The notes under the pieces: model-generated
Seen by the model: only the letters and a program-made list of their open reading frames with translations
Database searches by the model: none
What the model was told of the DNA's origin: nothing
Shown here: piece after piece, positions 3,163 through 28,390 of the stretch
Layout: every line of letters starts with the position of its first letter
Position numbering within the stretch: position 1 is the first letter of the stretch
Origin: Minisyncoccota bacterium
GTDB taxonomy: Bacteria > Patescibacteriota > Minisyncoccia > Phycocordibacterales > UBA1550
NCBI GenBank assembly: GCA_023229865.1
Contig: JALNYL010000006.1
Location: 5,597 to 69,596, forward strand
Length of the DNA stretch: 64,000 bases
Direction of reading: 5' to 3'
Translations under genes and position numbers: made by a program

Positions 3163-3573
3163 ATGCTTATGATACCCAATAACTCCTCTGCCATCAATCC
3201 AATCTCACACCGTGCAGGTACGGTTCTATCTACAAGCCGCTTCCTGTACAGACACCTTGGAATCCTTACTGGTCGTTTCATTAATGGTTTCCCGACCGTC
3301 ATTTCAAACTCCGGGGATGGCGGCATGGTCATAGAAGAATCCCTGTCGCAATTCCAAGGAACAGGAGACCTTCAAGTGGTCGGCTATCTTGGCACACTAC
3401 CTCAAGACGTGGTACTCGCAAGAGCGCAGGCAAAACTCGGAAGCAAATATTCCCTGTTAACTTGGAACTGTGAGCATTTTGTGCGACATGCACACGGCCT
3501 CAAACAAGAAAGCCCGCAGGTGGTTGCGGCGGTGTCATTGTTTGCGCTACTGTTGGTCGTTTCTCGCCTTTAA
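3163..3573 (+). CDS. NC-domain (LRAT/H-rev107, NlpC/P60 superfamily) protein with C-terminal hydrophobic tail
   Basis: catalytic motif YSLLTWNCEHFVRHAHG (NCEHF Cys/His) typical of LRAT-like acyltransferase/papain-fold family. Confidence 0.65.
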   Translation: MLMIPNNSSAINPISHRAGTVLSTSRFLYRHLGILTGRFINGFPTVISNSGDGGMVIEESLSQFQGTGDLQVVGYLGTLPQDVVLARAQAKLGSKYSLLTWNCEHFVRHAHGLKQESPQVVAAVSLFALLLVVSRL

Positions 3574-3623
3574 GTAAGCTCACAGTTCTGGCTGGAACTA
3601 TCTGAGCGCAGACGGAGGACTCA

Positions 3624-5444
3624 ATGAACGCACAAAAAAGTGTTTCAAAGGATTCTAAACGTGTCGGTATCTGGATTCGCGTCTCCACAGAAGACCAGGT
3701 GAGAGGGGAGAGCCCCGAGACGCACGAACGCCGTGCGCGCCTCTACGCAGAAGCCAAAGGCTGGGATGTGGTCGAGGTGTACCGCCTTGACGCTCTCTCG
3801 GGCAAGACCGTCAAGGAATACCCTGAAACAAAGCGCATGCTTGCCGACATCGCCAGCGAACACATCACCGGACTCATCTTCTCCAAGCTAGCCCGACTCG
3901 CTCGAAATACCAAAGAGCTTCTCGATTTCGCTGAGATATTCCGCGACTGCAATGCAGACCTCATTTCACTTGCAGAGTCGATAGATACCTCGACCCCCGC
4001 AGGACGTCTCTTCTACACCATGATCGCAGCTATGGCCCAGTGGGAGCGCGAGGAGATAGCGTCCCGTGTTGCTGCATCAGTCCCCATCCGCGCCAAGATG
4101 GGCAAGCCCTTGGGTGGTCAATCTCCGTTTGGGTATCAATGGAAGGAAGGCAAGCTCATTCCCGATGACGCCGAAGCACCCGTCCGCAAACTCATGTATG
4201 AGCTCTTCCGCGAGAATGAAAGAAAGAAGACCGTAGCGCGACTACTCAACGAACGCGGATATCGCACGCGGAACGGTTCTCTGTTCACCGATACGACCAT
4301 CACCCGTCTCCTTCGTGATCCCACCGCTAAAGGTGTCCGCCGTGCGAACTACACCGTCTCCAAAGACAGCAAGAAATCATGGGGCCTAAAACCTGAAAAT
4401 GAATGGGTGCTTCATGAGGTAGAAGCGATCATTTCCGAAGACCTCTGGAATGAGGTCAATGCAATTCTTGATGCTCAACAAAAAAAGGGAAAGCGTGTTG
4501 CGCGTCAGGTCATCCACCTGTTTGCAGGACTCACGTATTGTGGCTGCGGGCAAAAAATGTATGTGCCATCGAACACTCCAAAGTACGTTTGCTACGACTG
4601 CCGCAACAAGATTCCTGTCGTTGATCTAGAGGGAGTATTTCACGAGCAGATCAAAAACTTTTTCTTCTCTTCGGAGGAAATTGCCGAACATCTATGCAAG
4701 GCAAACGCAACTATTCACGAGAAAGAAGAACTGCTCCAGGTTCTTCTCAACGAACAGAAGAAGCTCACTGCCGAGGTGGACAAGTTGTACGACCTCTACC
4801 AAGGGGGAGCGATTGATAAGGCGGGATTCGGGGCGAAATACTACCCGCTTGCAGAACGAGGGCGTCAGCTTGATGATGAAGTTCCTCAGGCGCAGGCAGA
4901 GCTCGATGTACTGAAAATCTCGCAGCTTTCTCAGGAAGAGATCATCACCGGCGCACGCGATCTTTACTCTCGCTGGCCGGAACTCCCCCAGGAAGAGAAA
5001 CGTCGCATCGTAGAGGCCATCACCGACCGAATCGTCATCCATCCCGACGAAGTAGAGATCAACCTCTTCTATGCGCCGGGAACCTCTACACCATCAGCGG
5101 GAACCCCGTTCACCCCAGAATCCTCAGGGGGCTCATCTACACCCCCTGTAACCCCGTCTTTAAATGGTGGCAGGAAGGCAACGGAACTTCATAGACGCGT
5201 TGCCTTTTTACCATACGTCCGCGTGTGCCTCAAATCCCTGAGAAAGAAGGATTTTGACTTTGAGCCGCGTACCCTGGGCGAGCAAATCAAGCGGCGGCGT
5301 CTGGAACTCTGCCTGTCACAAAAGGAGGTAGGGGAGATGCTGGGTGTAAGCTCGTTTACTGTGCTGAATTGGGAAAAGGGGAAGACAATGCCAAACGAGG
5401 AGGCCATGCCGCGCATTGCATCCTTTTTAAGTGGTGGTGCATAA
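3624..5444 (+). CDS. large serine recombinase (resolvase/invertase catalytic domain + recombinase domain + zinc ribbon + coiled coil) with extra C-terminal XRE-type HTH
   Basis: [12 protein letters not shown]...[10 protein letters not shown] catalytic Ser region, [23 protein letters not shown]...CYDCRNK zinc ribbon; strong SD GGAGGA 5 nt upstream; C-term [31 protein letters not shown]. Confidence 0.9.
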
Positions 5445-5838: not shown

Positions 5839-7008
5839 TCATCTTCCAATGGTCGTAACTACTCCTACAGAAGGCGGGAAGTCACTACCTGATTGCTGTT
5901 TGGAAATAAGTAAAGAAACGAGCGAGAGAGTATGCATCGATCTGTTGGGGCAAGGCTCACTAGTCCCTGTTTTCAATCGAGGGATTACATACGATTCACC
6001 TTCGTAATTAATCTCCACATATGGTTTGCCGTAGGTCTCAGAATCAGATTTCTTGGAACGCGCAAAGAATAATGTTTCGTCCTTGCAGTTTTCGTTTCCA
6101 ATAGCTAGCACTTTGTTTTCTTCTGCAGCACGCAGAATTTCACCGAGATAATAAATTACTCCTTCGGGCGATCGTAAAATAATTCTCGTTGATTTCTCGG
6201 GAATGGATGTGCCTATGGAATTATCAACAACCTCCATCAACTTTGCGACTCCATCCTCATTGGCGCACGACAGAACATATTTGCCTTTACGTTTTGAAGC
6301 AAGCTGCCATTTCCCATTACCAACCTCTTTTAAAAGCATCCCAGCCTTTTGGATTTCAATAAGACTGTTCAGTTGGTCTGGATTAGCAGTACGCATTTCA
6401 ATCTGGGGTCCAATATTGTCTTCGCCGCCCCCCGACTCACTCAATTTGCATTCATGACCACCAATTATCTCTTTTACCTTCTTTTGGAAATCTGAAAATT
6501 GATTAGAGTTTGGATAATTCAGATATGAAGTTGTCTTGCCGTTCGCATTGATTTCTTCAATTTTTGAAACAATGAGGTAAAGGAGCATTTCTTTCGGCCA
6601 CCCTTGCTCCCAAAAGTAAGCAAGGGTTTCCGGCTTGATGGGCGCCAACATTCCTTGGATGAAATCCTTCGAAGTTAGCGGTGCAACTGTATAGACTGGT
6701 GACAGCGAGAAATTTGCTTTAGGTGTGAGTGAATATGCGCCGTTATATCCATTGCCAACCTTTCCGAAAGGCAGTACTAGGTCTCCTGACATTCCATAAG
6801 TTTGGGTCTCTTTCATGTCACTGAGGGTCGTGAAATACATAGGATACCGTTTGCTTGCGCGTACAATATTCAGCAAGAGCATTTCGTTCTGAGCTTTTTC
6901 AAGGGTCTGGTTGTACTCAGTAGCCCCTAAAGCAACCTGCTCTTTGGGGAGCGTTGCACAACCTGTAAGTGCAACGATACTAAGGGACAGCATTGATAGT
7001 TTTATCAT
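5839..7008 (-). CDS. lipoprotein of unknown function (ATG at 7008, SD GAGGA; translationally coupled 9 nt after nuclease stop)
   Basis: signal peptide + lipobox MIKLSMLSLSIVALTGC; track start at 7020 is GTG, ATG at 7008 preferred. Confidence 0.6.
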   Translation of the reverse strand: MIKLSMLSLSIVALTGCATLPKEQVALGATEYNQTLEKAQNEMLLLNIVRASKRYPMYFTTLSDMKETQTYGMSGDLVLPFGKVGNGYNGAYSLTPKANFSLSPVYTVAPLTSKDFIQGMLAPIKPETLAYFWEQGWPKEMLLYLIVSKIEEINANGKTTSYLNYPNSNQFSDFQKKVKEIIGGHECKLSESGGGEDNIGPQIEMRTANPDQLNSLIEIQKAGMLLKEVGNGKWQLASKRKGKYVLSCANEDGVAKLMEVVDNSIGTSIPEKSTRIILRSPEGVIYYLGEILRAAEENKVLAIGNENCKDETLFFARSKKSDSETYGKPYVEINYEGESYVIPRLKTGTSEPCPNRSMHTLSLVSLLISKQQSGSDFPPSVGVVTTIGR

Positions 7009-7016
7009 TTCAATCC

Positions 7017-8075
7017 TCACTCCCTTCTAATAGGCTTATCTACACATGTTGGTCTTGGGGCTCCTGCGAAATTTGAATTCAACTTGGTACTAAGCTCCCA
7101 GCTGTCATCGGAAGTACGACTGCTCTCGACCTGGTTTTCAATGTCATCGGGAAGTTCAGAAAGGAAATCGATTTCCGTACGCCGTTCAATTTCATCAACA
7201 GTCGTGACAAGCTTTGAAAGCTCTGTGCCTGGCTTTGTTTGTTGTGTAAATATGACTGCAAGTACATTGGGTTTCCCGTCGGTCTCTTTTACGATGATCT
7301 TGTAAAACGCGACGGGCAACTCGACACCAGAACAAAGACGGTTGAGCCACACAGGATCAAAGATGGGGCCAGCAGTTACCCATATATTACCGACTTGTTC
7401 CGCGTATGAAGCCTCAAGCATTTCCAGCCCTAGCCACGACTTTTGGTTAAGTGAGGGAAGTTGTGGGGTGATGTTCGACATGAAGTAGGTCTCATTCTGC
7501 GAATCACATCCATGCCGTGAGCCTATGTTATCGCTTGGAGCCATGTGCCCACGGTCGTATCCCGAGCTGTTGTAGCTATCATGAGTGGTGCGAATGAGGG
7601 TGCGATCATCAGTGAGGAATCGAGATAGCCGAGGGCAATCATGCCCTTGATCTGTACCAATCTGATATGCAGACCATAGAGGGTTCGCCTTTGTTTCTGA
7701 ATACCCGACAGCGTACGCCGCGTTTTTGATGTGCGATATTTGATCGCTCACTTTGGAATCATTGGGGAGGCCACCAAAGAACACACTCCGCTCAACCCCA
7801 GGGGGATCGCCGCTGAACAAGCGAACTCGTGATTTGTATACCCACCCAGTCCCCGAACCATTGAGGAGCCGAATCTTATGGTAGCCATTTTGCAGTTTGT
7901 CACTTACGGTAAGCAGATAGATTTGCTGACTGAGCTTCTCCGGATGGACTGACTCAAGGATTGTTGCATTGCGGTCGGGGGATGCGTAGATGTTAGCGCT
8001 ACGCTTGACCTCAACATAGTTTGCCCAGGCGCAGGCTGGGAATATACACATCAGGATAAGCAGTGCCCGTCGCAT
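7017..8075 (-). CDS. secreted DNA/RNA non-specific endonuclease (Serratia NucA/Endonuclease_NS family) with N-terminal signal peptide and extra N-terminal domain
   Basis: SGYDRGHMAPSDN active-site (DRGH) motif, downstream N..TPQ region; signal peptide MRRALLILMCIFPACAWA; SD AGGAG before ATG 8075 (track start 8081 is GTG). Confidence 0.85.
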   Translation of the reverse strand: MRRALLILMCIFPACAWANYVEVKRSANIYASPDRNATILESVHPEKLSQQIYLLTVSDKLQNGYHKIRLLNGSGTGWVYKSRVRLFSGDPPGVERSVFFGGLPNDSKVSDQISHIKNAAYAVGYSETKANPLWSAYQIGTDQGHDCPRLSRFLTDDRTLIRTTHDSYNSSGYDRGHMAPSDNIGSRHGCDSQNETYFMSNITPQLPSLNQKSWLGLEMLEASYAEQVGNIWVTAGPIFDPVWLNRLCSGVELPVAFYKIIVKETDGKPNVLAVIFTQQTKPGTELSKLVTTVDEIERRTEIDFLSELPDDIENQVESSRTSDDSWELSTKLNSNFAGAPRPTCVDKPIRRE

Positions 8076-8130
8076 AACCACTCCTTCTATCTATGCTCGA
8101 TATACAAAGTTGAGTGATGCCGTGCCTGAC

Positions 8131-8550
8131 CTAAATTGTTTTTTCTAAATCCAGTTTCATCTTTGCGCTTTTAATCTCTCGTTCAGCCTTTGAGAAATCT
8201 TCATGTTCTTGCTGAGCCGAACTTTTCCAGTTCAGGAAATCCCGGAATAGCTTGATTGATCCTTTGCTTCCACCAGACACAACCCCTGCTGTAATGAGGT
8301 AACCCACGAGTGTGTTTTTCTCCTGGCTGAAGATCACCGCCATGGCATCGAATTGGTACAGGTACACAATTACAAGAGATGTGATGATGACAATGGGCTC
8401 CTTGAAGCCCTTGTTCTTCATTTTATCCAAAACCAAACGTGACTCGAATATTGGGGACAGGGCGCGTTCGACGAAGAGCGAGAGCAAAACGATTGTCCCG
8501 AGTACCTCTAAGACAACATCTCCCTTGATTCCAAAAAGTAGCGGGTCCAT
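8131..8550 (-). CDS. small membrane protein, unknown function (downstream of rSAM maturase; possible export/immunity role)
   Basis: ATG with SD GGGAGA; three hydrophobic segments. Confidence 0.5.
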   Translation of the reverse strand: MDPLLFGIKGDVVLEVLGTIVLLSLFVERALSPIFESRLVLDKMKNKGFKEPIVIITSLVIVYLYQFDAMAVIFSQEKNTLVGYLITAGVVSGGSKGSIKLFRDFLNWKSSAQQEHEDFSKAEREIKSAKMKLDLEKTI

Positions 8551-8652
8551 TCAGTATCTCCCTGTCGTGTTTTAGATTCTTCACTTTACTACAGCGTTTT
8601 AGAGCCCGTAAACAAGCCCCTCAATATACTGTCAATGTAATGTGTTCCCGAA

Positions 8653-10029
8653 TTAGCGCCCATCTGATGAATTAATTAATGCAGCCTCGGCATCTGAAAT
8701 CAGAATCGCGCGGCCAATCTTGCCCACATATTTTTCTATGTTGAATCGCACAGCATCACAGGGAGTCAGCGACTGATCCATGAAAATTCTAGGGTGAGCA
8801 CATCCCCCCATACAAAGAGGCAAAACATTGCAACTCTTGCATCGCTCATTTTCAAACGGAGAATAATCTGCCCATTGCTTATCGATATTGGAAGCAGACG
8901 AGGGCAATGGTTTATAACCCTCTGAAATATGCCCTGACTGCTCAGTAACAGCCCCTACGCTATGCCAGCAGCGACTGATTGACCCATCTGGCCCGATGAC
9001 AATCATCCTGTGCGCAGAGGCTGAACATGCTGCGGATTTAGGAGTTAACTTCCGCGCCAACATTTGCATGCCGTTATCGCTTACTGATAGTGCAAGATTT
9101 TCAAGTGTCGCGTATTCGCTCCGCCCCAGGCTGCATCCATGACCACAAGGGCCATCAGAAGGATTCCGCTTGCCGTCTGAGTTGGTTGCATACCCAGCAT
9201 CTCCCTCGTAATCATAGACGTGGGACAACACAACGGTTGGCACAGAGTTGGCGCGAAGATCATCCAAAATATTTTCAACTTCGTGCGCATTCTTGTTCGT
9301 TACATTAATCCGCACTTGAATATCCAGGTGATCTTTGGATTCCAGAAGATTCTTGTATATCCTGGAAGGCTCACCGGTGCTTGTTCGCATCCCCCGCAAC
9401 CCAGTTTGCTCTTGAAGGGAGTCAAAGCATATCTGAACATTTCTCATGCCAAGCTTGTCCAGTTCCTTCGCGGTGTCTTGGTCGAGCAGTGCTCCATTGG
9501 TGACCATAGTAACGTCGAGTTTACCGCGAGCACTTCTGACAACCTTGCGGATATCCTCAGTCAATTTGATTATTTGCGCCTTACGCAATAATGGCTCTCC
9601 GCCAAACCAGGTAACCAAGAAGCGCCGCCAGCCAAACTGGATGCACGATTCAATGTACTGCAACAATTGCTCCTCCACCTCTGGGCGCATTATGGCACTC
9701 GTGCGATACGACGCTTGAAAGCAATATTCACACGAATAATTGCAGGCGAGTGTGGGAACAAGGGTCAGGTGGAGCGTGTCTCCTCCGCGCGAAGCAAGAA
9801 AGGTTTTCTTGATGAGCTCGATTTCGTCGTCTTTGTGAAGGAATCCCATGCGGCGCAATTGTCGCGGATCGATAGCCTTTTTTAGATCACCATCCCCACG
9901 AAGAATTTCTGCATTTTCTGACGAGAGAAGAGCGAAGGTTCCTGTGCGTGCGTTATATCCAATAACACCCTCATCTCGCTCAATGAAATAATTGTAGCGC
10001 GAACGAACATAGTCGAATCGCTTAGACAT
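8653..10029 (-). CDS. radical SAM / SPASM-domain peptide-modifying enzyme (anSME/ranthipeptide-sactipeptide maturase-like)
   Basis: CNYSCEYC (CxxxCxxC) cluster; C-terminal SPASM cysteines C...CWH and CKSCNVLPLCMGGCAH; N-terminal ~100-aa peptide-recognition-like extension. Confidence 0.85.
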   Translation of the reverse strand: MSKRFDYVRSRYNYFIERDEGVIGYNARTGTFALLSSENAEILRGDGDLKKAIDPRQLRRMGFLHKDDEIELIKKTFLASRGGDTLHLTLVPTLACNYSCEYCFQASYRTSAIMRPEVEEQLLQYIESCIQFGWRRFLVTWFGGEPLLRKAQIIKLTEDIRKVVRSARGKLDVTMVTNGALLDQDTAKELDKLGMRNVQICFDSLQEQTGLRGMRTSTGEPSRIYKNLLESKDHLDIQVRINVTNKNAHEVENILDDLRANSVPTVVLSHVYDYEGDAGYATNSDGKRNPSDGPCGHGCSLGRSEYATLENLALSVSDNGMQMLARKLTPKSAACSASAHRMIVIGPDGSISRCWHSVGAVTEQSGHISEGYKPLPSSASNIDKQWADYSPFENERCKSCNVLPLCMGGCAHPRIFMDQSLTPCDAVRFNIEKYVGKIGRAILISDAEAALINSSDGR

Positions 10030-10064
10030 GGATCGCCCCCGCTACCGTATTACTGACTTGCTGA

Positions 10065-10244
10065 TTACTTGACACTGCAACTGAGAACGTCGCAGCAGAT
10101 GGATACCAAACCGCCAGGACGCGGAATTTTGGTAGTTATTCTTGAACTGAATGAACCAGTGTTAATCGCGGGGATTTTTACGACCATTTCTTTGGTCCCC
10201 GTAGCAAGTAATTTTATTGCTCCTGTCTTTGCGGTAGTAGCCAT
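10065..10244 (-). CDS. candidate RiPP precursor peptide, 59 aa: MATTAKTGAIKLLATGTKEMVVKIPAINTGSFSSRITTKIPRPGGLVSICCDVLSCSVK (not in ORF track, <60 aa)
   Basis: ATG preceded by GAGAGGAG SD at 6-nt spacing; 35 nt upstream of and co-oriented with rSAM/SPASM gene; Gly-Gly motif followed by 14-aa Cys-rich C-terminal core (3 Cys). Confidence 0.55.
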   Translation of the reverse strand: MATTAKTGAIKLLATGTKEMVVKIPAINTGSFSSRITTKIPRPGGLVSICCDVLSCSVK

Positions 10245-10592
10245 GCTGCACTCCTCTCATAAGTTGGAAAAACAATAAAGCCTTCGTACCCATTGTGGGC
10301 AGCGTGAATGGTAGGTCAAAAACAAATTTTGCGGCGCGGCTTGTCGGACTAGGCGAAGAACTAGACCAACCTGCGTCGAGGTCTATAACTTGGTCTATAT
10401 ATTCATAGCGCTGTGCAGGACACTGTGGGGGGGCTGTGTTCCGTACAACCTGGCCCCGGCAATTATTTGCCCATTGCCGGAAAAGTAATGACGCCCGACA
10501 AAGTGATTGATGGAAGAGGCGTATTGGTTGGACCCCCTCGTAACGATGGTTGAAACTGGGTTAGGCTTCCGCCTCAACTAGGAAATACGTGG

Positions 10593-11075
10593 CTAATTCT
10601 CAATGCAACCATTACTAGCTGCGAAACCACATACTCCATCAAGTAGAAGTCCCCCTGCCTGTTTTTCTCGAGTTTTTATATCGAACATCATCAAACCACG
10701 ATGAGTTGACCAGAGATACCAGATTTTCGGGCTCCCATTCTTCTCAATGACTAGTGCTGGGCGTTCTCCCCGCAATCGAATTCTTTGGATTACCTTATAT
10801 ATCGATCCATTAAATTCCCATTTGTTTTGAAGAATCGAATTTCTTGGGACAGCAAATTCAAATACTTTTGAGACAACGCAATGAAATTCATTTTCTGCAT
10901 CACAAAATTTTGCGTCATATCCAACGTCTCCAACAATGACAGAGTTTGTTGTTCTGTCAATGGCGAAGCCGGGACCCTTTGATGGTATACGGATATATTC
11001 CGCAATTTGTTCAGCAAAACAGCACGTGGTAATAGTCCACGTAAAGAAGATAATTGGTATTGTTTTTACTTGCAT
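10593..11075 (-). CDS. exported hypothetical protein; candidate immunity protein for upstream Rhs-CT toxin (overlaps toxin stop by ~10 nt)
   Basis: N-terminal hydrophobic signal-like segment; position immediately downstream of toxin cassette; track start 11081 is TTG, ATG at 11075. Confidence 0.4.
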   Translation of the reverse strand: MQVKTIPIIFFTWTITTCCFAEQIAEYIRIPSKGPGFAIDRTTNSVIVGDVGYDAKFCDAENEFHCVVSKVFEFAVPRNSILQNKWEFNGSIYKVIQRIRLRGERPALVIEKNGSPKIWYLWSTHRGLMMFDIKTREKQAGGLLLDGVCGFAASNGCIEN

Positions 11076-11683
11076 GAGCAATCCCCTGAAAGGAATTTTC
11101 TAGCCCAAGCATCGGCGTCATTTTCGCCAGGTGCCTCTTTGCCAACAAGCGCGCGAGAATTATCCAAGCTATGATTTTCATTCATGAGGTGGCGGAACTC
11201 GTGCGTAAAGATTAGTGAAGGTCCGGGATCATGGGATGTGAGGTTGAAAAAGTCCCAATTAAATCGCGTTTCCTGGGTCGAATACCATGTGTCAGCAAAA
11301 CCAGTTCTAGCTCGATGAAATATATCATCTGCCTTTGGGTCAACGTAAACTTTCCAGTTATCAAATTTTGATTGGAGCGCTGCGCGATTCTTCTTGCATG
11401 TTGTATTTATCTGCGCTTGCATCAGACTGCCAAGATGCCACAAAAACGCCTCGCGCTTTCTTAATTCCGCTTCTGCGGCATCGCTAGATGGCTGCCCACG
11501 TCGTATAACATCATACAACCCATATGGGTCTGAATTGACTAACGGGTTGCTCCTTACATAGGCATACGTATTAACGCCACCTTCTAGTCCGACAGGATCG
11601 GATTGGATATATCTCGCAAGCGCATTCTCCTCATAACAAGCAAGCGCAAGAAATAGCACCACAACGTTTCTGAATCTGATCAT
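11066..11683 (-). CDS. orphan Rhs/YD-repeat C-terminal toxin module: signal peptide + Rhs core terminal junction + ~150-aa toxin domain with HExxH (putative zinc metallopeptidase toxin)
   Basis: ARYIQSDPVGLEGGVNTYAYVRSNPLVNSDPYGL matches RHS-core end motif (DPxGL...NxYxYxxNPxxxxDPxGL); toxin region contains THEFRHL; SD GGGAG before ATG 11683 (MIRFRNVVVLFLALACYEENALA). Confidence 0.7.
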   Translation of the reverse strand: MIRFRNVVVLFLALACYEENALARYIQSDPVGLEGGVNTYAYVRSNPLVNSDPYGLYDVIRRGQPSSDAAEAELRKREAFLWHLGSLMQAQINTTCKKNRAALQSKFDNWKVYVDPKADDIFHRARTGFADTWYSTQETRFNWDFFNLTSHDPGPSLIFTHEFRHLMNENHSLDNSRALVGKEAPGENDADAWARKFLSGDCSCK

Positions 11684-11693
11684 TGCCATCTCC

Positions 11694-12671
11694 CTATTGA
11701 GCCAATCTCGCACGCTCCACGACTTGCTTGTACTGTGCCTTGTAGACCTCCGTTGGCATTCTCCAACCGAGCGCTTCTGCCTTGTCGTACCAAAGTCGAC
11801 TGTTACGATCCAAGAAAGCGTAATTCGACCGCTCTTCCAGCGGAATCAAGTCTGGTCTGGGATATTTGTTGATGAAACGGTCTTTGATCAACCTCGCGTA
11901 GGATGCGCCTTTGTGAAGCATGGCATTAACTGCTTTTGGCGAATACTCCAGCACCATATCAGAAGCCTCAATGGCCTTTTCGTATTGGTGCTTGTGCATG
12001 TAATGCTCGATCAGCGTATCTGTCATTAAAGCAACAGTTTCTTTTTTGCTTAGGGGGCGGAGATAGACGCCATTTGCGATGGCTTCGTCAGTCATGGGCA
12101 TTTGCTGCCTAAGCCACACATCTCGTGCCGTGTTTGCCCCGCTGGTCGCTTCGAGATTAATCCAGCCCTCATTGTTGGCTTTGTACTTCACGAATATGTG
12201 TTCGGGCGCAGTAGCGGCAGTCACTTCGAGGCCAAGCCGTTGCCCAAGGATGATGAAGAGGAAGGGCATGGAGACGCAATTGCCTTTTCTGGACTCCAAA
12301 TAGCTGGGCAGCAATTTATGGCTTATGTCTTCCCCATAAGGATCTGCCAAGTCGTACTGGTAGGGGCGCTGTCCATTCCATGGGTTGGCGGTATAAAGAT
12401 ACGTTCTTAAAACCTGTAGTTTTTCTGGGCTGGATGCATTGAATAGAAGCCCCATTTGGATGTTTGCCACCATCGAATCAATTTTTTTGAGGTTGGCCAT
12501 AATATCAATACTTGGGTCGATCATTTTGTCGATGGTCAGTTTTGCTTTGCCAAGATCAATCTGGTTTTCCGGCAGTCTTAGCATTGCTTGAATTGGACTG
12601 AGATCGTTGGCGAACGCAGCACTGCTTGGGACGGCCATAATCAGCAACAGAATCAGAAAAATACACCGCAT
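11694..12671 (-). CDS. secreted transglutaminase-like (papain-fold Cys-His-Asp) superfamily protein
   Basis: signal peptide MRCIFLILLLIMAVPSSAAFA; RKGNCVSMPFLFIILGQRLGLEV ... PEHIFVKY ... WINLEAT motifs resembling transglutaminase-like core; track start 12827 is TTG. Confidence 0.5.
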   Translation of the reverse strand: MRCIFLILLLIMAVPSSAAFANDLSPIQAMLRLPENQIDLGKAKLTIDKMIDPSIDIMANLKKIDSMVANIQMGLLFNASSPEKLQVLRTYLYTANPWNGQRPYQYDLADPYGEDISHKLLPSYLESRKGNCVSMPFLFIILGQRLGLEVTAATAPEHIFVKYKANNEGWINLEATSGANTARDVWLRQQMPMTDEAIANGVYLRPLSKKETVALMTDTLIEHYMHKHQYEKAIEASDMVLEYSPKAVNAMLHKGASYARLIKDRFINKYPRPDLIPLEERSNYAFLDRNSRLWYDKAEALGWRMPTEVYKAQYKQVVERARLAQ

Positions 12672-12844
12672 GCCTTGCCTGTCCAAAATGCAAACCAGAA
12701 GAACCCTACAGCAAGAACTGTTTTTCGACAATATGCCATTGGGCGCATTAAGGGGAAGCTTTCTCTCGGAGGCCATCGCAGGGATTGAAGCTGGTAAATG
12801 GAGATTTAATGTCTCCACGAGGTGCAACCAGATGTGCCCATGCT

Positions 12845-13129
12845 TTAGCCAAAGCGCTTCCAGTTATCAATGAGCCACTTCTTCACATTGGCGTGACTCC
12901 GCGTATCACCTGGTAGATGCTTCTTTATCAAGCGCTCTACCTTTACTCCAGAGTCTTTTTGTTTTAAATCACATGCGGTTGCGAAGCTATTAATAAATGC
13001 CAAGACCTCGTAACCTTCATTCCGATTCAGGAACGTACTATCCGGTTTGCCGGTGACCTTGGGATCATCTGGAGCAATGGCCGTCCATGAGTAGTCGAAT
13101 TCCAAATCGCTTTTTTGAAGAAGTGGCAT
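12845..13129 (-). CDS. hypothetical protein (94 aa)
   Basis: ATG with strong SD AGAGGA; no recognisable motif. Confidence 0.4.
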   Translation of the reverse strand: MPLLQKSDLEFDYSWTAIAPDDPKVTGKPDSTFLNRNEGYEVLAFINSFATACDLKQKDSGVKVERLIKKHLPGDTRSHANVKKWLIDNWKRFG

Positions 13130-13263
13130 ATTGTCCTCTCGGTGAAAATATTGCTGAACGGCGCATGACTCTACTTCTGAAATCCAGATAAGACAATATG
13201 CCGAACTATCTAGATATCTACGCGAAAGATATAGATACCTCCATATTCCTTGCTTGGATTTGA

Positions 13264-15993
13264 TTACTGCTTCTCAGCTTTTGAGAGCGACCGCGCAATT
13301 ACCTGCGCTACCGCGCTACGTCGTTCGGCGATGTCAGAAGGGGAGAGTGCCTGACTCGTCACCTTGACCTTGTACCCACGCACGGTACTTTCTGTCGTCG
13401 TTGGCGTCGTTGAAACAACTTGGTCGAGGTGTTCGATCAAATCCTCTGGGCTGAAATACCGCACCTTGTCTCGCACTGCTTCATCCAGGTTCGCGGGAAT
13501 GAACCGTGCAAGCGATTTCAAGTGGCGCGCATTCGTGCTGACAACCAATACCTCTTCGTATCCAGCTGAAAGACACTTCTCAACGTTCTGGAGCTCCCAG
13601 TCTCGTCCCGTGGTCACGGATATTTCCACGGCGATCTTGCGTTCTCCCTGCGAGAGGTGAACATCCACCCGTCCCGCACCATCAAGGATGGGTTCTTCGA
13701 TGGATGCCTTGAATGCGCGTTCTTCTGCAAGCTGCTTTACGAGTTGCGCAAGGTACTTGTGCTGCTTCCCACCACCCCCTTGTTCCTTCACCTCATATTT
13801 CGGGCTGGGGGTAGTGGTACGGAATACACGCGGCGCGGGTAGCTCAGGGTAGGGGGAAGAGCCTGCGCCGAGGTCTTCGTGTACAGGCTCCCCCTGGGGC
13901 GCTGGTGCAATCCCTTTCGGTGCCACCATCTCCTTCTTCTCAATCCGCCTGGCTACTGGTGGGACGATCTCAATCTGCGGAATCCGTGCCTCCACGCCAT
14001 ACACTACGCGATTCCTCTCGATGAGCTCTGCATACTGGATATCGTCAAGCACTGGCTCCCGTTCTACCACCCCGAGAGGAATGGAAACGGAAAGCGCTCT
14101 GGCCGTGAAGTTCTTCACATAGCAGGCGAACTCCGTATGGTTCCCGTATTTCTTTTGCTGCAATAGGAAATTAGCATCAGTACGGAACTCTGCATCAAGT
14201 GAGTTTGCATCCTTACTACTTACGCCACCGGCGAATTTAATGGAGGTACTAGCAAGGACACTTGCGCGAAGCGCTGGGCTCAGTTGGTCGAGGTTCTGGT
14301 GACTAAAGACCAGGCCAATCTTGTATTTCCGCGTCTGGTTCACCATGCGGTCGATATTCTCGTCAAAATAGTCCTCAGCCTCGTCGATATATGCAAAGGT
14401 GGGGGTTCGCTCGTGTGCGGGCAATATCGCGCGTTGTATGGCCGCCTGCGCGATCAGGGACACGATGAATCGGCCAAATATTGAAGAACCTTCGTGCCCC
14501 AAGAAATCCTTGGCCGTATTTACTAAAATGATCTTGCCCTCCTGGGTCAGCTTGAATAGGTCAACCTTGTTCTTGGGGTGGCTGAGCATTCGTTCGAGGG
14601 TCGTGTTACTGAGTACGCCCCAGAGTCGTGCCGTGATCTGTTTTTTGTTCTCGGCGAACTGCCGATCAAAAAACTGCGTCGCAAAGAATGTGTGGGCAGT
14701 ACCTGTGAGCTTTTCCATGTAGGGGCGGTACTTCTCTCCGTTCATCATGAGCTCAAGGAGTGTATGAATGGTGGCATTAGGGATTTCCATCATGAGGCGG
14801 GCAAGGTAGCGGAATATCACCCCCTGCCTTTGGGTGAGCTCTGCGCCAAGGAGTGCCCCGAAGAAGTACTCGTAGGTCTCGACTGTTGCGTTGAGAATCA
14901 TTTCTCTGTCTTGCGCTGAAAGCGTACCCATCCGCGCCCGGTCGAAGTCGAACATATTGAGTCCAACAGGATGCTCTACATCAGTCGGGTCGATGAGGAC
15001 AAACCGATCCGCAAGACTGTTTCCCTCACTTGGGTCAAAGAGCTTCAGGTGTGCAATGGTGCGGATCATGTCTCCCTGGCTATCCATCACGATGATCGAC
15101 CTCCCATCCTCCTGTGCCTTCACGAGGTCATGATGAATGAGGAACTGGAGTAGTTGTGTTTTGCCGTGCCCTGATCCCGCAACGATATGCGTGTGTTCAA
15201 ATCGCGCCGGGAAGGGGATAGCAAAGGGAAGTGTGTAGTAGAAAAAAGAGCGAAGCGGTGTTCCCTGAAGATACCCGTCTATGAGGTACTCAGGTGCGGT
15301 GCTCTTGTTGTCGCCCGGCATGATGATCTTCTGCGCCGTACCGTGCCGCCCGCCCGGCGGAACCCCCGACATGAGCCCTACGTTTCCTTCAAGTCTTTCC
15401 CGGAGGGGATCGAAGAGATGCGCATTCACCACGTCAGCATCGTAGAACGTGAGGATGAGCCGGTCGAGTACTTCGGGCAGATTATCGCAAAGGTCCCCTA
15501 TGTGCGCCTCGGGAAGGGTAACGGCGTTGTCAGAAGCAACTCCGTTTGCTCCGATGTCGGTAAAAGCCGAGAGCGGAAAATATTCGAGCATCCCCGAGAA
15601 CAGCCATACCAGCTTATCCCGCCAGATGACGGTCAGTCGTTCGTGGTCGTGGAGGTAATGCAGGTGCCGTTTCCAAATTGCACGAAGTTGAATTCCTTCC
15701 TCAATCGTGAGTTTGGGGATTGTGGAGCGCGGGGGAAGTTCAATAATGAGCCCATCGAAGGACAGGAGACTCCTCACGGTATCGTAGAGCGCATTCCCGA
15801 GAGGAGTCGAGGGGGTGACCCCGCGCCGTTCGCAGACCTCAAAGATGATTTCAAGAATGAAGTCACCGATCTTATCTTCATCTGAAAACGGCGCGCAAGC
15901 CTGAGCATCAACTACCTGCTCATAGAGGGTAGTCATGTCTTTGATCTCGCGGCTACGCGCCGAACCACGAAACCAGTTCTTCCAGTTCGACAT
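13264..15993 (-). CDS. large FtsK/HerA-superfamily P-loop ATPase, TraG/TraD/VirD4 coupling-protein-like core (no obvious TM helices) with ~270-aa N-terminal and ~200-aa C-terminal extra domains
   Basis: Walker A AGSGHGKTQLL, DSQGD after P-loop, Walker B AYIDEAEDYF, FSHQNLDQL; translationally coupled to upstream small gene. Confidence 0.65.
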   Translation of the reverse strand: MSNWKNWFRGSARSREIKDMTTLYEQVVDAQACAPFSDEDKIGDFILEIIFEVCERRGVTPSTPLGNALYDTVRSLLSFDGLIIELPPRSTIPKLTIEEGIQLRAIWKRHLHYLHDHERLTVIWRDKLVWLFSGMLEYFPLSAFTDIGANGVASDNAVTLPEAHIGDLCDNLPEVLDRLILTFYDADVVNAHLFDPLRERLEGNVGLMSGVPPGGRHGTAQKIIMPGDNKSTAPEYLIDGYLQGTPLRSFFYYTLPFAIPFPARFEHTHIVAGSGHGKTQLLQFLIHHDLVKAQEDGRSIIVMDSQGDMIRTIAHLKLFDPSEGNSLADRFVLIDPTDVEHPVGLNMFDFDRARMGTLSAQDREMILNATVETYEYFFGALLGAELTQRQGVIFRYLARLMMEIPNATIHTLLELMMNGEKYRPYMEKLTGTAHTFFATQFFDRQFAENKKQITARLWGVLSNTTLERMLSHPKNKVDLFKLTQEGKIILVNTAKDFLGHEGSSIFGRFIVSLIAQAAIQRAILPAHERTPTFAYIDEAEDYFDENIDRMVNQTRKYKIGLVFSHQNLDQLSPALRASVLASTSIKFAGGVSSKDANSLDAEFRTDANFLLQQKKYGNHTEFACYVKNFTARALSVSIPLGVVEREPVLDDIQYAELIERNRVVYGVEARIPQIEIVPPVARRIEKKEMVAPKGIAPAPQGEPVHEDLGAGSSPYPELPAPRVFRTTTPSPKYEVKEQGGGGKQHKYLAQLVKQLAEERAFKASIEEPILDGAGRVDVHLSQGERKIAVEISVTTGRDWELQNVEKCLSAGYEEVLVVSTNARHLKSLARFIPANLDEAVRDKVRYFSPEDLIEHLDQVVSTTPTTTESTVRGYKVKVTSQALSPSDIAERRSAVAQVIARSLSKAEKQ

Positions 15994-17359: not shown

Positions 17360-18520
17360 TTAATTCCTCACCGTCGTCGCACTAAACGGCTTACTCGGTG
17401 CGCCGTCGATCATGAGCTTGAGATATATGTCATGGTTCGGAATGTTCACCAAGTCCTCAGGTGAAAACACCGGCTCGAATTCCCGTGCAAGCGTCCGCGC
17501 ATCCTCTGCTCCTACGCGAAAGGCAATGAGCGTACCGACATTGCCCAGGACTGCATGCATCACCTCTCCTTCAAGTTGGTGAAGGTGCTGATTGGCAAGC
17601 ACGAGCCCAAGTTTGAATTTGCGAAGTTCCGACACAGTGTTCGCCACAGAAAGCGTCGTGAAGTTCTGGAATTCATCGAGGTGAAGATAAAACGGCCGAC
17701 GTGAATGTTCAGGTAGTTCGCTTCTGCTGAAGGCAGCAAGGTTGAGTGTGGTTACCAAGAGCGCCCCCAAGAGATTTGCGCTGTCGTCTCCCAATCGCCC
17801 CTTGGCGAGATTCACGATGAGGATCTTCCCTGAGTCCATGATGCGGCGAAAGCTGAGATCAATTGGTGGATTCGTAAGGATGCGGAAAAGCCTTGGGTCA
17901 GCAAGGAACGCGCCGATCTTGTTCTGGATAGGGGAGATCATCTCCTGGCGGTAGCGAGGGTTGTAGTCTTTGAACTCGTGTTCCCAAAATTCGCGCACCT
18001 GCACGTTGGAAATATTTTTCACTACGTTGTGTCGATACGCAGTGTCGCTAAACATGCGCAAAATGTCGGGGAGCGTCGCATCGCCGTACTCAATCAGAGC
18101 GTAGAGCGTGTTCCTGAGCACATGCTCCATGCGCACACCCCAAGCATCATCAAAGAGTTTCTTGAGCGCCTCCATGAGTCCTGAGACGGCAAGTGGCACC
18201 TTGTCCTTCCGCACCTGTCTGAGGGGGTTGTAGCCATACGGCTGATCGATATCAGCGGCATCCAGGTAGACGAGGTCGTCAGATCGCTCCTGGGGAATCC
18301 TGGCTATGAGACGCTCCGCCATATCGCCGTGCGGATCAATGACACACACTCCGTGCCCGTGTGCAATGTCCTGCTCTGCCAATGTCTCCATGAGCGTCGT
18401 CTTGCCGGTGCCGGTTTTTCCGATGACGTACAGGTGAAACAAGCGATCATCACTCTTGATGCCGAACCGCACCTTCTTTCTTCCGTTGGTCTCCGCAAAA
18501 TAGCTGATGTTGTTCTTCAT
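17360..18520 (-). CDS. HerA/DUF87/TrwB-like P-loop ATPase (386 aa)
   Basis: Walker A VIGKTGTGKTTL followed by VIDPHGD; Walker B YLHLDEFQNF. Confidence 0.65.
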   Translation of the reverse strand: MKNNISYFAETNGRKKVRFGIKSDDRLFHLYVIGKTGTGKTTLMETLAEQDIAHGHGVCVIDPHGDMAERLIARIPQERSDDLVYLDAADIDQPYGYNPLRQVRKDKVPLAVSGLMEALKKLFDDAWGVRMEHVLRNTLYALIEYGDATLPDILRMFSDTAYRHNVVKNISNVQVREFWEHEFKDYNPRYRQEMISPIQNKIGAFLADPRLFRILTNPPIDLSFRRIMDSGKILIVNLAKGRLGDDSANLLGALLVTTLNLAAFSRSELPEHSRRPFYLHLDEFQNFTTLSVANTVSELRKFKLGLVLANQHLHQLEGEVMHAVLGNVGTLIAFRVGAEDARTLAREFEPVFSPEDLVNIPNHDIYLKLMIDGAPSKPFSATTVRN

Positions 18521-24189: not shown

Positions 24190-24735
24190 TTACATCTGCA
24201 TCAAGCGTTTCAGGATTCGGTACGAGCTCATCGCCCCATTGAAGCCTTTGTGAGGCATCGATTCAACAGGGAGTCCGAGCCATTTGGCAACCTCGTCTTT
24301 GTTGAGCTTATCAATGCCGGAAGTCCTGAGTTTTGTCCAGCCGATAGTGAAGAGTTCAAGACGATGATAGTCCATATTGTCCGTGACCGCAGTTCTTCGG
24401 AAGGCTTCTGCAATAAAGGACCAGTCGTACGCCATGTTGTGAGCAGCAAAGAGGGCGCCTTGTGTCTTCTTCGCATATTGAGACATTGCAATACTGAGAG
24501 GGGGTGCGTCCACCCAGTCAGCTTCGTTGTAACCAGTGTGTGTGATACACTTCGCACTCGCTGTTTCGGGGTGCTCTGGTTTTACTCGCGTATCCATGGT
24601 GTCGATGATATCGAAAGTCCGTTGGTCAATGAGTACAAGTCCAATGTCGATAATTTCGTTGGTTATCGGGGAGTGTCCCGTGGTCTCGACATCAGTAATT
24701 GCGATCGGCCTATCAAGAATGCATACGTCATTCAT
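24190..24735 (-). CDS. DnaQ-like 3'-5' exonuclease (DEDDh family)
   Basis: Exo I ITDVETTG, Exo II HNMAYDWSFI, Exo III H...region; SD GAGGA. Confidence 0.8.
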   Translation of the reverse strand: MNDVCILDRPIAITDVETTGHSPITNEIIDIGLVLIDQRTFDIIDTMDTRVKPEHPETASAKCITHTGYNEADWVDAPPLSIAMSQYAKKTQGALFAAHNMAYDWSFIAEAFRRTAVTDNMDYHRLELFTIGWTKLRTSGIDKLNKDEVAKWLGLPVESMPHKGFNGAMSSYRILKRLMQM

Positions 24736-24860
24736 TTTGGAATCCTCTTCGTTTGTTTAAAGATCAGGTACTGCTTTTGATACACTCTCAAAAAGCGGGC
24801 CAAAAGTCAAACAAATAAAAACTGCCCGACTTGTGGTCGGGCAGTAGTAGTGAGGTTGAA

Positions 24861-25283
24861 TCAGTAGGGTTTCGGCTTGCCATCTTCTGTACGAATACGC
24901 ATGCGCGTTTCCGATACCGACAAGACCTTGATCAAGTTGATGTCAGGACTTGAGACGGAGCCGCTGGGAGAAATTTCCCAGACGGGCTGTTGCGCGTCTG
25001 CGAAATGGAGAGCCTCGCGGAATACTCCCGCCCCCCAGGTGCCATCACGGAAACCAAGGAAGATACCGGCGCTACAGCTCGGAAGGACGACTTCGGTGTA
25101 GTAGTCCATCCCATTACCCGTCTCGTTCTTGTACTTTTCGTAGCCCCCCGCGTGGTGACGTTGATTGGGGTTCTCGATTTCCCAGCCGGGGAAGATTTCC
25201 GCGATTTTTTCGAGAAGCTCTTGTTCAAGGGGAGTGTTGTAAACATTCACCGGGTGTCCGAAATACAATTTGCGTCCGCTCAT
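24861..25283 (-). CDS. hypothetical protein (140 aa; MSGRKLYFGHPVNVYNTPLEQELL...)
   Basis: ATG with SD AGGAGG 8 nt upstream; upstream part of track ORF unlikely translated. Confidence 0.5.
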   Translation of the reverse strand: MSGRKLYFGHPVNVYNTPLEQELLEKIAEIFPGWEIENPNQRHHAGGYEKYKNETGNGMDYYTEVVLPSCSAGIFLGFRDGTWGAGVFREALHFADAQQPVWEISPSGSVSSPDINLIKVLSVSETRMRIRTEDGKPKPY

Positions 25284-25324
25284 TTGATTGCCTCCTTGTC
25301 GTTTAAAGATCGAGATATTGCTAT

Positions 25325-25582
25325 TTGATAGCCTCTCAAAAAGGGGTGGAAAAGTCAATGCGCGGGGGGTATACTGTTTATATGATTAAATTTCCTCGGG
25401 CTGAATTTTGGGATATTTTTGGAGTTGGTGTTTTTGCCGCGATTACGCTTCTGAGCGGATGGGCCATCACGACAGGGGAGCCTATCCCTACGTGGGGGCT
25501 CGCGTTCCTGTTTTTTGTGGGGATTTTTGGGATTTTTGTTGACGGGACGATTGTAAATAAGACCTTTTTGAGGAAGAAATAG
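25325..25582 (+). CDS. small membrane protein, hypothetical
   Basis: two hydrophobic helices; start uncertain. Confidence 0.35.
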   Translation: MIASQKGVEKSMRGGYTVYMIKFPRAEFWDIFGVGVFAAITLLSGWAITTGEPIPTWGLAFLFFVGIFGIFVDGTIVNKTFLRKK

Positions 25583-25980: not shown

Positions 25981-26055
25981 GCCCCTGTAGTTCAATGGAT
26001 AGAACAGTTCCGTCCTAAGGAATAGATGTAAGTTCGATTCTTACCAGAGGCACCA
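25981..26055 (+). tRNA. tRNA-Arg (anticodon CCT), CCA encoded; one C-A mismatch in acceptor stem
   Basis: cloverleaf folded by hand: D-arm TAGTTCAATGGATAGAACA, anticodon loop GTCCTAA, T-arm GTAAGTTCGATTCTTAC. Confidence 0.75.
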
Positions 26056-26085: not shown

Positions 26086-26243
26086 GTGCCCCTGGTAAGA
26101 ATCGAACAAGAAGGGGGCCAGGGAAACATTTGTTTCCCTGTGGAGGAAGGATTGGGAAAACCGTGGGTTTCCCAAGGGTGAGATAGTGAAGCGTCTTACC
26201 AGAGGCACAAAGCGTTAAGAAAACCTGCTCTTCTGCAGGTTTT

Positions 26244-26362
26244 TAGCTTTGTGCGACCGCAGCCATATTTCGTCAGCAGATGAAATGGCGAGGTGGGGTA
26301 GCGAGCACTTATGTAGATTGCGAGCAGGGCGAAGCAATATACTTAGTGACTCGTGACACAAG
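26244..26362 (+). repeat. copy B of conserved intergenic element (hairpin ATTTCGTC-AGCA-GATGAAAT, CGAGGTGGGG, CACTTATG, GATTGCGAGC, CTTAGTGAC)
   Basis: ~85% identical to copy C over ~105 nt. Confidence 0.55.
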
Positions 26363-27990: not shown

Positions 27991-28114
27991 TAAAATTAGT
28001 CGAAAGTTAAAAGTGACAAGTCGAAAGTATTTGCCGAGGTAGCTGTTTTGGTAGGCCCAGAAGAGGGAAACAAAACAAAGTACCATGAAGGATAGGTAAG
28101 AGAAAAAAGTATAT

Positions 28115-28187
28115 GCCGAGGTAGCTCAGTTGGTAGAGCATTCGCCTGAAGAGCGAGGGGTCACCAGTTCAACCCTGGTCCTCGGCA
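28115..28187 (+). tRNA. tRNA-Phe (anticodon GAA), CCA not encoded
   Basis: GCCGAGGTAGCTCAGTTGGTAGAGC...anticodon loop CTGAAGA...GGTTCAACCC...CCTCGGCA. Confidence 0.85.
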
Positions 28188-28195
28188 CAAAATAC

Positions 28196-28227: not shown

Positions 28228-28390
28228 TATTTTGTGCCGAGGAAGTAAGCGGAGCTTGCGTCCAGGGTTGAAGGCCGCAGCTATATTTCGTCAACAGACG
28301 AAATAGCGAGGCGGGGGCGCAAGCACTTACGCAGATTGCGAGCTTTGCGAGGCAATATGCTTAGTGACTTGTGTCCGCCCTGATCCTCGG
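28227..28390 (+). repeat. copy C of conserved intergenic element (hairpin ATTTCGTC-AACA-GACGAAAT, CGAGGCGGGG, CACTTACG, GATTGCGAGC, CTTAGTGAC), closed by CCGAGGA...TCCTCGG long-range pairing
   Basis: aligned with copy B. Confidence 0.55.

Follow-up and report, generated by a model that had tools for sequence, protein, structure and literature searches.

Does a short open reading frame (ORF) lying directly in front of a radical S-adenosylmethionine (rSAM) gene encode the peptide on which that enzyme acts, and if so, what would the enzyme do to it? The question is raised by a 64,000-nt stretch of contig JALNYL010000006.1 from a Minisyncoccota bacterium (positions 5,597 to 69,596 of the forward strand), which was analysed over its full length and is referred to here as the window. 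A first-pass annotation had proposed that a 59-aa Cys-rich peptide and an adjacent rSAM/SPASM enzyme form a candidate locus for a peptide made on the ribosome and then modified after translation (RiPP). Co-conservation, codon comparison, domain architecture and the nearest known families bear this proposal out, and it is highly probable that the two genes are a genuine precursor–maturase pair. Our complete reading, which we hold with moderate confidence, is that the 59-aa ORF is the precursor of a modified peptide and the rSAM/SPASM protein its dedicated maturase, that the two act by the mechanism set out below, and that they form a cassette acquired horizontally into an island of a candidate phyla radiation (CPR) genome.

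The precursor gene and its family

When the ORFs of the stretch were listed down to 20 aa, the 59-aa ORF was recovered, and reading of the sequence confirmed both its Shine–Dalgarno element and its spacing of 35 nt between its stop codon and the start of the rSAM gene, as first described (Table 1). An independent gene caller found the same ORF on an independent assembly (L001, positions 3448-3627, on a contig of 6115 bp that is 100% identical to window positions 7577-13691), and a hidden Markov model (HMM) of the precursor family matched the 59-aa ORF alone in the window (E 1e-17), so that the gene is present as a single copy. A terminator or attenuator was sought in the gap between the precursor and rSAM genes and none was found. 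The AlphaFold2 (AF2) model of the precursor alone had a predicted local distance difference test score (pLDDT) of 47, suggesting that the leader has no autonomous fold, and contained a weak beta-hairpin (residues 11-15 and 19-23) within the conserved leader motif. A poorly folded precursor with such a predicted hairpin would fit a leader that gains order on the enzyme.

The closest homologue of the enzyme (P0002, 49% identity) is encoded on a contig of 73% GC (L002), where a 60-aa ORF before the rSAM gene ends in QIAICCDTLSCSVKNEALER. Genes for rSAM proteins of about 40% identity, from Nodularia, Cyanobium, Kastovskya and several metagenome contigs, each have an ORF of 57-95 aa in front of them, and these ORFs share a leader of the form hVKLVxLGEDxxLhAKL...PxGxxIxxIxV, a Gly-rich hinge and a short Cys-containing C-terminus. 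With a third contig of 32% GC (L162), which carries SYACCDTLSCSVK, the core CCD(V/T)LSCSVK was found in three unrelated contigs of 73% (L002), 47% and 32% GC (L162). When the codons of the 11-residue core were compared between the window, L002 and L162, the window differed from L002 by 4 synonymous and 1 non-synonymous changes and from L162 by 7 and 2, respectively, while L002 and L162 differed by 9 and 1; core differences are therefore mostly synonymous, indicating that selection acts on the translated peptide.

Co-occurrence with the enzyme gene followed the same line. Among the fetched loci, an ORF matching the family HMM lay directly upstream on the same strand in 12/12 with an rSAM identity of 35% or more to the query, in 1/9 at 31-35% and in 1/161 below 31%. 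Because the HMM was built from the positive loci, their count is partly circular, which weighs against our reading; the negatives are unaffected. The near-absence of the ORF below 35% rSAM identity indicates that the precursor family is specific to the rSAM clade of the window. The first-pass annotation had itself raised the possibility that the short ORF is missing from relatives, and its presence in all 12 of the closest loci contradicts this.

Two protein searches extended the family: 18 precursor clusters came from 5.8 billion proteins by word-indexed search, and 24 precursors at E <= 1e-3 from 1.84 billion representatives searched exhaustively with HMMER, giving 47 unique precursors in total when ORFs taken from the loci are included. 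In an alignment of 16 sequences (A3), the sole invariant core column was the Cys aligned to Cys56 of the window peptide. Two types of core were distinguished. The first, with 22 mainly cyanobacterial sequences, has a single Cys followed by (G/I/V/F)-(I/V)-(Q/N)-(F/V/I)-(N/T); the second, CC-(D/K/Q/R/N/E)-x-L, was present in 14 of the 47 precursors, including those of the window, L002, L162, L087, L008 and L005. A universal core motif C-x-hydrophobic-(K/Q/N/R), derived from alignment A3, was dropped as universal after the exhaustive search yielded CC-type cores that do not fit it.

The family has the conserved leader, the hypervariable core and the adjacent enzyme gene on the same strand by which a RiPP system is recognized. 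Neither the window peptide nor six homologous precursors matched any family in NCBIfam or Pfam, and comparison of the precursor profile with PDB sequences gave only chance kallikrein matches (E ~0.06) and no likeness to a solved structure. No published description of the precursor/rSAM family was found in the literature searched, outside which many subscription-journal papers lie. Judged from its sequences, the gene pair is a RiPP family that has no entry in the NCBIfam or Pfam catalogues.

The maturase and its nearest relatives

The 458-aa enzyme scored above the cut-off of the Pfam model Radical_SAM (PF04055, 62.7 bits) and of the NCBIfam model for SPASM (TIGR04085, 53.7 bits against a cut-off of 27), and the CxxxCxxC motif noted at first pass reads CNYSCEYC. 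In an alignment of the window sequence with 17 homologues, this motif and the seven Cys residues of the SPASM domain were invariant in all 18 sequences, with no invariant eighth Cys, and N-terminal residues of the enzyme were invariant within the clade. The spacing of the SPASM Cys residues agrees with the motif of the subfamily, C-x9-15-G-x4-C ... C-x2-C-x5-C-x3-C ... C, in which the Gly is G349. In the AF2 model (pLDDT 89, predicted TM-score 0.87), residues 13-82 have the topology of a RiPP recognition element (RRE), with three strands followed by three helices, and precede the radical-SAM barrel and the SPASM domain. The highest-ranking Foldseek matches in the PDB were TigE (8vpo), CteB (5why, 5wgg), anSME, SuiB and ChlB, and the alignments to the RRE-bearing TigE and CteB covered 477-503 columns as compared with ~405 for the RRE-less anSME. 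No sequence profile for PqqD/RRE matched the enzyme; we call the domain RRE-like on the strength of AF2 and Foldseek. The modelled fold is that of a peptide-modifying rSAM/SPASM enzyme and leaves the reaction unfixed, as the products of the structural matches differ: cyclopropylglycine for TigE, thioethers for CteB and a C–C bond for SuiB.

Comparison with NCBIfam models, suggested at first pass for the maturase, assigned the precursor to no family and left the enzyme below every family cut-off. The best full-length matches of the enzyme were RiPP maturases throughout, several of which work on Cys-rich peptides. The highest was TIGR04463 ('rSAM_vs_C_rich'), followed by Clo7bot (TIGR04334; 155 bits, cut-off 600), geopeptide (TIGR04280; 145, cut-off 400), FlmE/OhkG (139, cut-off 500), CefB (NF038107; 118, cut-off 600), PapB (NF047865; 103, cut-off 340) and SCIFF (TIGR03974; 73, cut-off 425). 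Matches to anSME (TIGR03942; 58 bits against 349), prokaryotic viperin (pVip; NF038283, 60 against 180 and residues 93-249 only; PADLOC pVip, 56 bits) and MoaA (59 against 284) were confined to the radical-SAM core, and no sulfatase domain was found in the neighbouring genes. The best matches being peptide maturases, the enzyme did not classify firmly outside the peptide-modifying families, as the first-pass annotation had allowed that it might.

With TIGR04463, residues 12-433 of the enzyme align to positions 1-422 of the 438 in the profile, and the window pair shares with this family, as with Clo7bot, geopeptide and CefB ('Cys-every-fifth'), an N-terminal peptide-binding region, a radical-SAM core, a SPASM domain and a small Cys-peptide gene as partner. 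At 192.7 bits for the window enzyme and 174-220 for its clade relatives against a cut-off of 525, the window group nevertheless forms a separate clade, and its precursor fits none of the curated precursor models of TIGR04463 and its kin.

Among ranthipeptide systems, CteB/SCIFF resembles the window pair in its RRE, radical-SAM and seven-Cys SPASM domains, in full-length structure (TM-score about 0.62-0.66) and in the Cys-containing C-terminal core, but the enzymes are only 17-18% identical, the window precursor lacks the six-Cys pattern of SCIFF, and its leader is different, longer and of beta-strand type. PapB, which installs Cys-X3-Asp S–C-beta thioethers in freyrasin, is likewise a peptide-modifying rSAM/SPASM enzyme, and a Cys–Asp thioether is conceivable in the window core, where Asp52 lies four residues from Cys56, with Cys50/Cys51 adjacent; unlike freyrasin, the window peptide has D-X3-C rather than repeated C-X3-D, has no repeats, and belongs to a family in which many members replace the Asp with K, Q or R.

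Sactipeptide synthases (AlbA of subtilosin, SkfB, thuricin) are rSAM enzymes with auxiliary clusters that act on leader-bearing Cys peptides, and SkfB (6efn) was among the structural matches, although its sequence similarity to the window enzyme was weak (E 2e-4), and sactipeptide loci usually combine a leader protease with an ABC exporter or immunity genes, whereas the window has neither protease nor exporter. TigE, a poly-cyclopropylglycine synthase, was the best Foldseek match (E 2e-14) and aligned over its full length including the RRE, but it is 18% identical, and the invariant feature of the window family is a Cys, whereas the substrate of TigE has repeated TVGG-type motifs. Double-glycine peptides processed by C39 peptidases share the Gly-rich hinge (PGG/PGGGG) ahead of the core, and the cyanobacterial subclade of the family has a Peptidase_C39_2 protein; the window differs in having neither C39 peptidase nor ABC transporter, the two closest precursors lack GG, and the leader of ~45 aa with beta-strands contrasts with the short helical double-glycine leader. 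From these sequence comparisons, the window pair appears to work in the manner of sactipeptide and ranthipeptide systems, with TIGR04463 as its closest curated relative, and to be a member of none of the families, since it missed each threshold that was tested.

Mechanism and competing explanations

In the mechanism that we propose, the N-terminal RRE-like domain would bind the beta-strand leader motif at residues 8-24 of the precursor. The radical-SAM cluster would then split S-adenosylmethionine to a 5'-deoxyadenosyl radical, which would remove hydrogen from one of the core residues. The resulting carbon radical would be captured by a core Cys (candidates Cys50, Cys51 and Cys56), probably bound at the open site of auxiliary cluster I, to form one or more intramolecular thioethers. 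With no peptidase or exporter in the cassette, the leader would either be cleaved off in trans or be retained. The pair would be a self-contained two-gene cassette that a CPR (Paceibacteria/Yonathbacteria-like) genome gained horizontally, within a variable conflict island beside a serine recombinase.

We put a Cys thioether as the reaction at slightly better than even. Participation of Cys is suggested by three lines of evidence: at least one Cys soon after the hinge is the sole core feature conserved across the aligned members, the closest curated families act mostly on Cys-rich peptides, and the seven-Cys SPASM domain without an eighth ligand is kept, in agreement with the thioether-forming CteB. 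In the crystal structures of CteB (PDB 5wgg/5why), auxiliary cluster I reportedly binds a substrate Cys. The first-pass annotation had gone further and named a sactipeptide- or ranthipeptide-like thioether class; this specific assignment did not hold up, as the enzyme failed every curated sactipeptide and ranthipeptide threshold and its top structural match makes cyclopropylglycine.

Processing was examined through the gene neighbourhoods. Clustering of the neighbours in 13 family loci showed that the rSAM and precursor genes are the only ones common throughout, and no accessory gene was conserved among the non-cyanobacterial loci. Five loci of cyanobacterial type (L003, L005, L006, L007 and L086) encode a stand-alone Peptidase_C39_2 protein of ~360 aa directly after the rSAM gene, an arrangement that, on sequence grounds, favours the Gly hinge as the cleavage site in that subclade. 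In these peptidases (L003 7373-8500, L006 7401-8477), the C-terminal domain of ~150 aa is also duplicated as a downstream gene (L003 8533-8994, L006 8509-8988), both copies ending in GG. The PGG of the window peptide aligns with the poly-Gly hinge of the family, including the C39-bearing cyanobacterial subclade, so that the double-glycine motif proposed at first pass is plausible, though not established, as a cleavage site, but GG is missing from L002 and L162; the accompanying proposal of a 14-residue core is one that we can only hold tentatively, with the boundary somewhat more likely to lie elsewhere. A second rSAM gene in the window was sought and none was found.

Several observations weigh against our reading, besides the partial circularity of the co-occurrence counts. 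The two precursors that lack GG are the closest ones to the window peptide. A single Cys is present in the C-terminal half of 22 of the 47 family members, so that a multi-thioether topology is no family trait. The enzyme lies well under all curated family cut-offs (e.g. 193 against 525 bits for TIGR04463), and its top structural neighbour forms cyclopropylglycine and SuiB forms C–C bonds, so the fold does not settle the reaction; the chemistry of the pair is one that we infer. A scan of all 64 kb revealed neither a C39 peptidase homologue nor an ABC signature, as the first-pass annotation had noted for the immediate vicinity, which leaves release of the mature product unexplained. Promoter-like matches were at chance level (3 as compared with 3.6 expected from shuffled sequences). 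Finally, our reading presupposes a CPR cell able to furnish the Fe–S assembly and reductant that an rSAM enzyme requires, which lies beyond what the window can show.

The alternative that survives best keeps the same pair and changes the reaction to one other than thioether formation, such as a C–C or C–O cross-link, Val/Ile cyclopropanation in the manner of TigE, epimerization or another change of the conserved Cys, with any extra Cys forming disulfides or binding metal. The structural neighbours of the enzyme, TigE (the top match) and SuiB (a Lys–Trp C–C bond), its position under the cut-off of each thioether family and the numerous family cores that are rich in Val/Ile and have a single Cys all agree with this explanation, but the three lines of evidence for Cys participation given above speak against it, and we consider it unlikely.

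The lack of a peptidase and an exporter could also be explained if the modified peptide were not exported and instead either stayed inside the cell, as a peptide-derived cofactor or a metal- or redox-active peptide comparable to PQQ or mycofactocin, or acted as a factor bound to the cell. In the window, L002, L085 and L087-L090, the conserved unit is no larger than the gene pair, and the region predicted to be modified lies at the extreme C-terminus, as it does in MftA and PqqA. On the other hand, no oxidoreductase or dehydrogenase partner is conserved beside the pair, the cyanobacterial subclade has a C39-like leader peptidase typical of released peptides, the core is hypervariable like those of secreted RiPPs and unlike those of cofactor precursors, and the surroundings in the island are toxins and nucleases, which together make an intracellular product improbable.

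The pair might instead be inert cargo, horizontally gained and intact in sequence but unexpressed or unprocessed in its CPR host. In keeping with this, no other CPR-named protein was present among the 120 best rSAM matches, processing and export genes are absent from the window, the promoter signal is insignificant and the cassette lies within a mosaic island; but both ORFs are intact, all clade-invariant residues are kept, the precursor has a strong Shine–Dalgarno sequence, and the GC and GC3 (GC at third codon positions) of the cassette equal those of the host, suggesting long residence rather than recent arrival, so that inert cargo is quite improbable. A chance origin of the short ORF, with a protein or a non-peptide compound as the substrate of the rSAM (as in anSME, a viperin-like antiviral or cofactor biosynthesis) has in its favour the weak, core-only matches to anSME, viperin and MoaA and a defence gene nearby, and is effectively refuted by scores far under the cut-offs of those families, neighbours that include no sulfatase, the RRE-like and full SPASM domains of the enzyme, and conservation of the ORF at the protein level over 32-73% GC, exclusively in the rSAM clade of the window.

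The host, the island and what the cassette may mean

A precursor–maturase cassette remains the reading in which we place the features of the window (Table 1).

Table 1. Positions of the cassette, its parts and the neighbouring genes in the window
Feature	Position	Strand	Details and basis
Precursor peptide gene	10065..10244	minus	59 aa + stop, MATTAKTGAIKLLATGTKEMVVKIPAINTGSFSSRITTKIPRPGGLVSICCDVLSCSVK; ORF list, independent gene call, family HMM
Shine–Dalgarno sequence GAGAGGAG	10251..10258	minus	6 nt from the end of the AGGAG core to the ATG at 10244; read from sequence
Leader region, residues 1-45	10110..10244	minus	PGG hinge at end; aligned with leaders and Gly-rich hinge of 46 other members
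Conserved leader recognition motif, residues 8-24	10173..10223	minus	GAIKLLATGTKEMVVKI; family alignments, consensus hVKLVxLGEDxxLhAKL
Core region, residues 46-59	10068..10109	minus	LVSICCDVLSCSVK; Cys50, Cys51, Asp52, Cys56; family alignments
Weak sigma-70-like promoter match (candidate)	10292..10319	minus	TTGACC-16-CACAAT; lies within the intergenic region (348 nt) ahead of the precursor gene
Radical SAM/SPASM peptide maturase	8653..10029	minus	458 aa; NCBIfam, Pfam, homologues, AF2, Foldseek
N-terminal RRE-like domain, residues ~10-82	9784..10002	minus	Three strands then three helices; AF2 topology
CxxxCxxC motif CNYSCEYC	9721..9744	minus	C96/C100/C103; invariant in 18/18 sequences
SPASM domain	8758..9027	minus	Seven invariant Cys, C335/C354/C397/C400/C406/C410/C424; TIGR04085 and Cys conservation
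Hydrophobic membrane protein	8131..8550	minus	139 aa; neighbour of the cassette, possibly co-transcribed, outside the conserved unit
Signal-peptide DNA/RNA non-specific endonuclease	7017-8081	minus	PF01223, 122 bits
Lipoprotein-like ORF	5839-7020	minus	393 aa; 4-nt overlap with the endonuclease gene
Large serine recombinase	3624..5444	plus	Pfam Resolvase, Recombinase, Zn-ribbon, helix-turn-helix; flanks the island
Candidate immunity gene	10593-11081	minus	162 aa; overlaps the end of the RHS module by 16 nt
Orphan RHS C-terminal module	11066-11713	minus	Rhs-associated core end (TIGR03696, 39 bits), then HExxH domain (FTHEFRHL)
Left-flank protein	144-2345	plus	733 aa; full-length PADLOC PDC-S46 match, 794.6 bits, E 2.7e-239
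ORF adjoining the PDC-S46 gene	2347-2700	plus	117 aa
Protein of no assigned family	13264-15993	minus	909 aa; PADLOC mad8 and phrog_5156 matches
HerA/TrwB-like P-loop ATPase	17360-18520	minus	386 aa; TrwB, HerA, DUF87 and PADLOC mad8 matches

The reduced-genome, episymbiont-type host suspected at first pass was supported by FtsZ, encoded on the same contig and 83-95% identical to proteins of Candidatus Yonathbacteria, Paceibacterota and Minisyncoccia, from which we assign the contig backbone to the CPR on sequence identity. The contig also carries FtsA, HisRS, TsaD, RNase J, a release factor and six tRNAs, and the NCBI source name attached to the rSAM protein is 'Candidatus Pacebacteria'.

The first-pass annotation had placed the locus on a GC-rich integrative element. 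The large serine recombinase next to the cassette agrees with a mobile or variable island, but the cassette is not GC-rich: its GC (48.7%) and GC3 (49.5%) equal those of the host housekeeping genes. Compositionally foreign DNA was found only at 13.2-19.6 kb (tetranucleotide r 0.46-0.58, as compared with 0.90 between host segments), where the segment of the 909-aa protein and the ATPase is the most foreign in the window, with a GC3 of 62-65%. The description of the ATPase as a 'TrwB/TraG coupling protein' was weakened by the finding that the same P-loop region matches HerA and mad8 defence ATPases, and a conjugative element is for this reason not established; the segment of the 909-aa protein and the ATPase may be a defence system or a DNA-transfer module. 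Direct repeats of att type bounding the island were sought and nothing convincing was found. A viral origin was rejected after comparison with IMG/VR, where nothing exceeded 28% identity to the rSAM and the 909-aa island protein had no relative. The cassette is likely to be cargo of a variable conflict island beside the serine recombinase, and likely to be mobile.

The small membrane protein that was said to follow the maturase gene is present, but it lies outside the conserved unit. Its homologues are absent from all other loci, and it had no match in Pfam, NCBIfam, PHROGs or PADLOC; it was rejected as an immunity or export partner on the ground that homologues are absent elsewhere. The endonuclease and lipoprotein-like genes lie downstream of the cassette on the same strand with no terminator detected between, and may be co-transcribed with it. 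No full-length RHS gene was found upstream of the orphan RHS module. Other genes at ~2.7-19.6 kb encode a helix-turn-helix regulator, a DUF3892 protein, a transglutaminase-like protein, RadC and HU. The PDC-S46 gene at the left edge of the window, of 38% GC, is a candidate anti-phage defence gene in a CPR genome.

Repeats were observed elsewhere in the window. A 99-nt direct repeat of 84% identity (26257-26355 and 28275-28373) has its copies ~200 nt downstream of tRNA-Arg (25981-26055) and tRNA-Phe (28115-28188), respectively, and matched no Rfam family at the gathering threshold. The last 15 nt of tRNA-Arg (26039-26053) are repeated exactly 155 nt downstream (26194-26208), and the 5' part of tRNA-Phe (28106-28136) is repeated 82 nt upstream at 87% identity (28024-28054); these partial repeats look like att-type scars of past integrations. 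A 35-nt direct repeat of 83% identity (24776-24810 and 25324-25358) lies at or just upstream of the starts of two consecutive minus-strand ORFs, an RNase T-like exonuclease (24190-24735) and an ORF at 24861-25358, and may be a shared regulatory site.

Peptide-modifying rSAM/SPASM enzymes are well known and uncharacterized clades of them are common, so one more candidate is unsurprising in itself. What is new here is that an uncatalogued rSAM RiPP family combines a leader of its own with a minimal two-gene architecture and an unusual host. A published atlas of RiPPs associated with rSAM enzymes demanded a co-localized ABC transporter (PMC10288494) and would miss a cassette of this type, which has none, and an ORF cut-off of 60 aa conceals the key gene of such loci. 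Metagenomic surveys have recorded no biosynthetic clusters (PMC11613949) or 9 (PMC8692599) in Patescibacteria/CPR. With its recurrent vicinal Cys–Cys motif, the pair offers a clean two-gene target for heterologous expression.

A bolder joint claim would be that the pair represents a new RiPP class and the first rSAM RiPP pathway of a CPR/Patescibacteria episymbiont, with its own beta-strand leader, a CC-(D/K/Q/R)-x-L or single-Cys core, a cross-link of neither sactipeptide nor ranthipeptide type, a two-gene cassette that hops between phyla without a dedicated protease or exporter, and a role as weapon or signal. As a whole we regard this as distinctly unlikely. If it were true, the cassette would move among Cyanobacteria, Actinobacteria, Planctomycetes and CPR, and an episymbiont would deploy its product against its host or competitors, or to signal to them, together with the RHS toxin and the secreted nuclease of the island. 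With toxin and secreted-nuclease genes and a candidate defence gene as its neighbours, the cassette may bear on the interactions of ultra-small episymbionts with their hosts and competitors.

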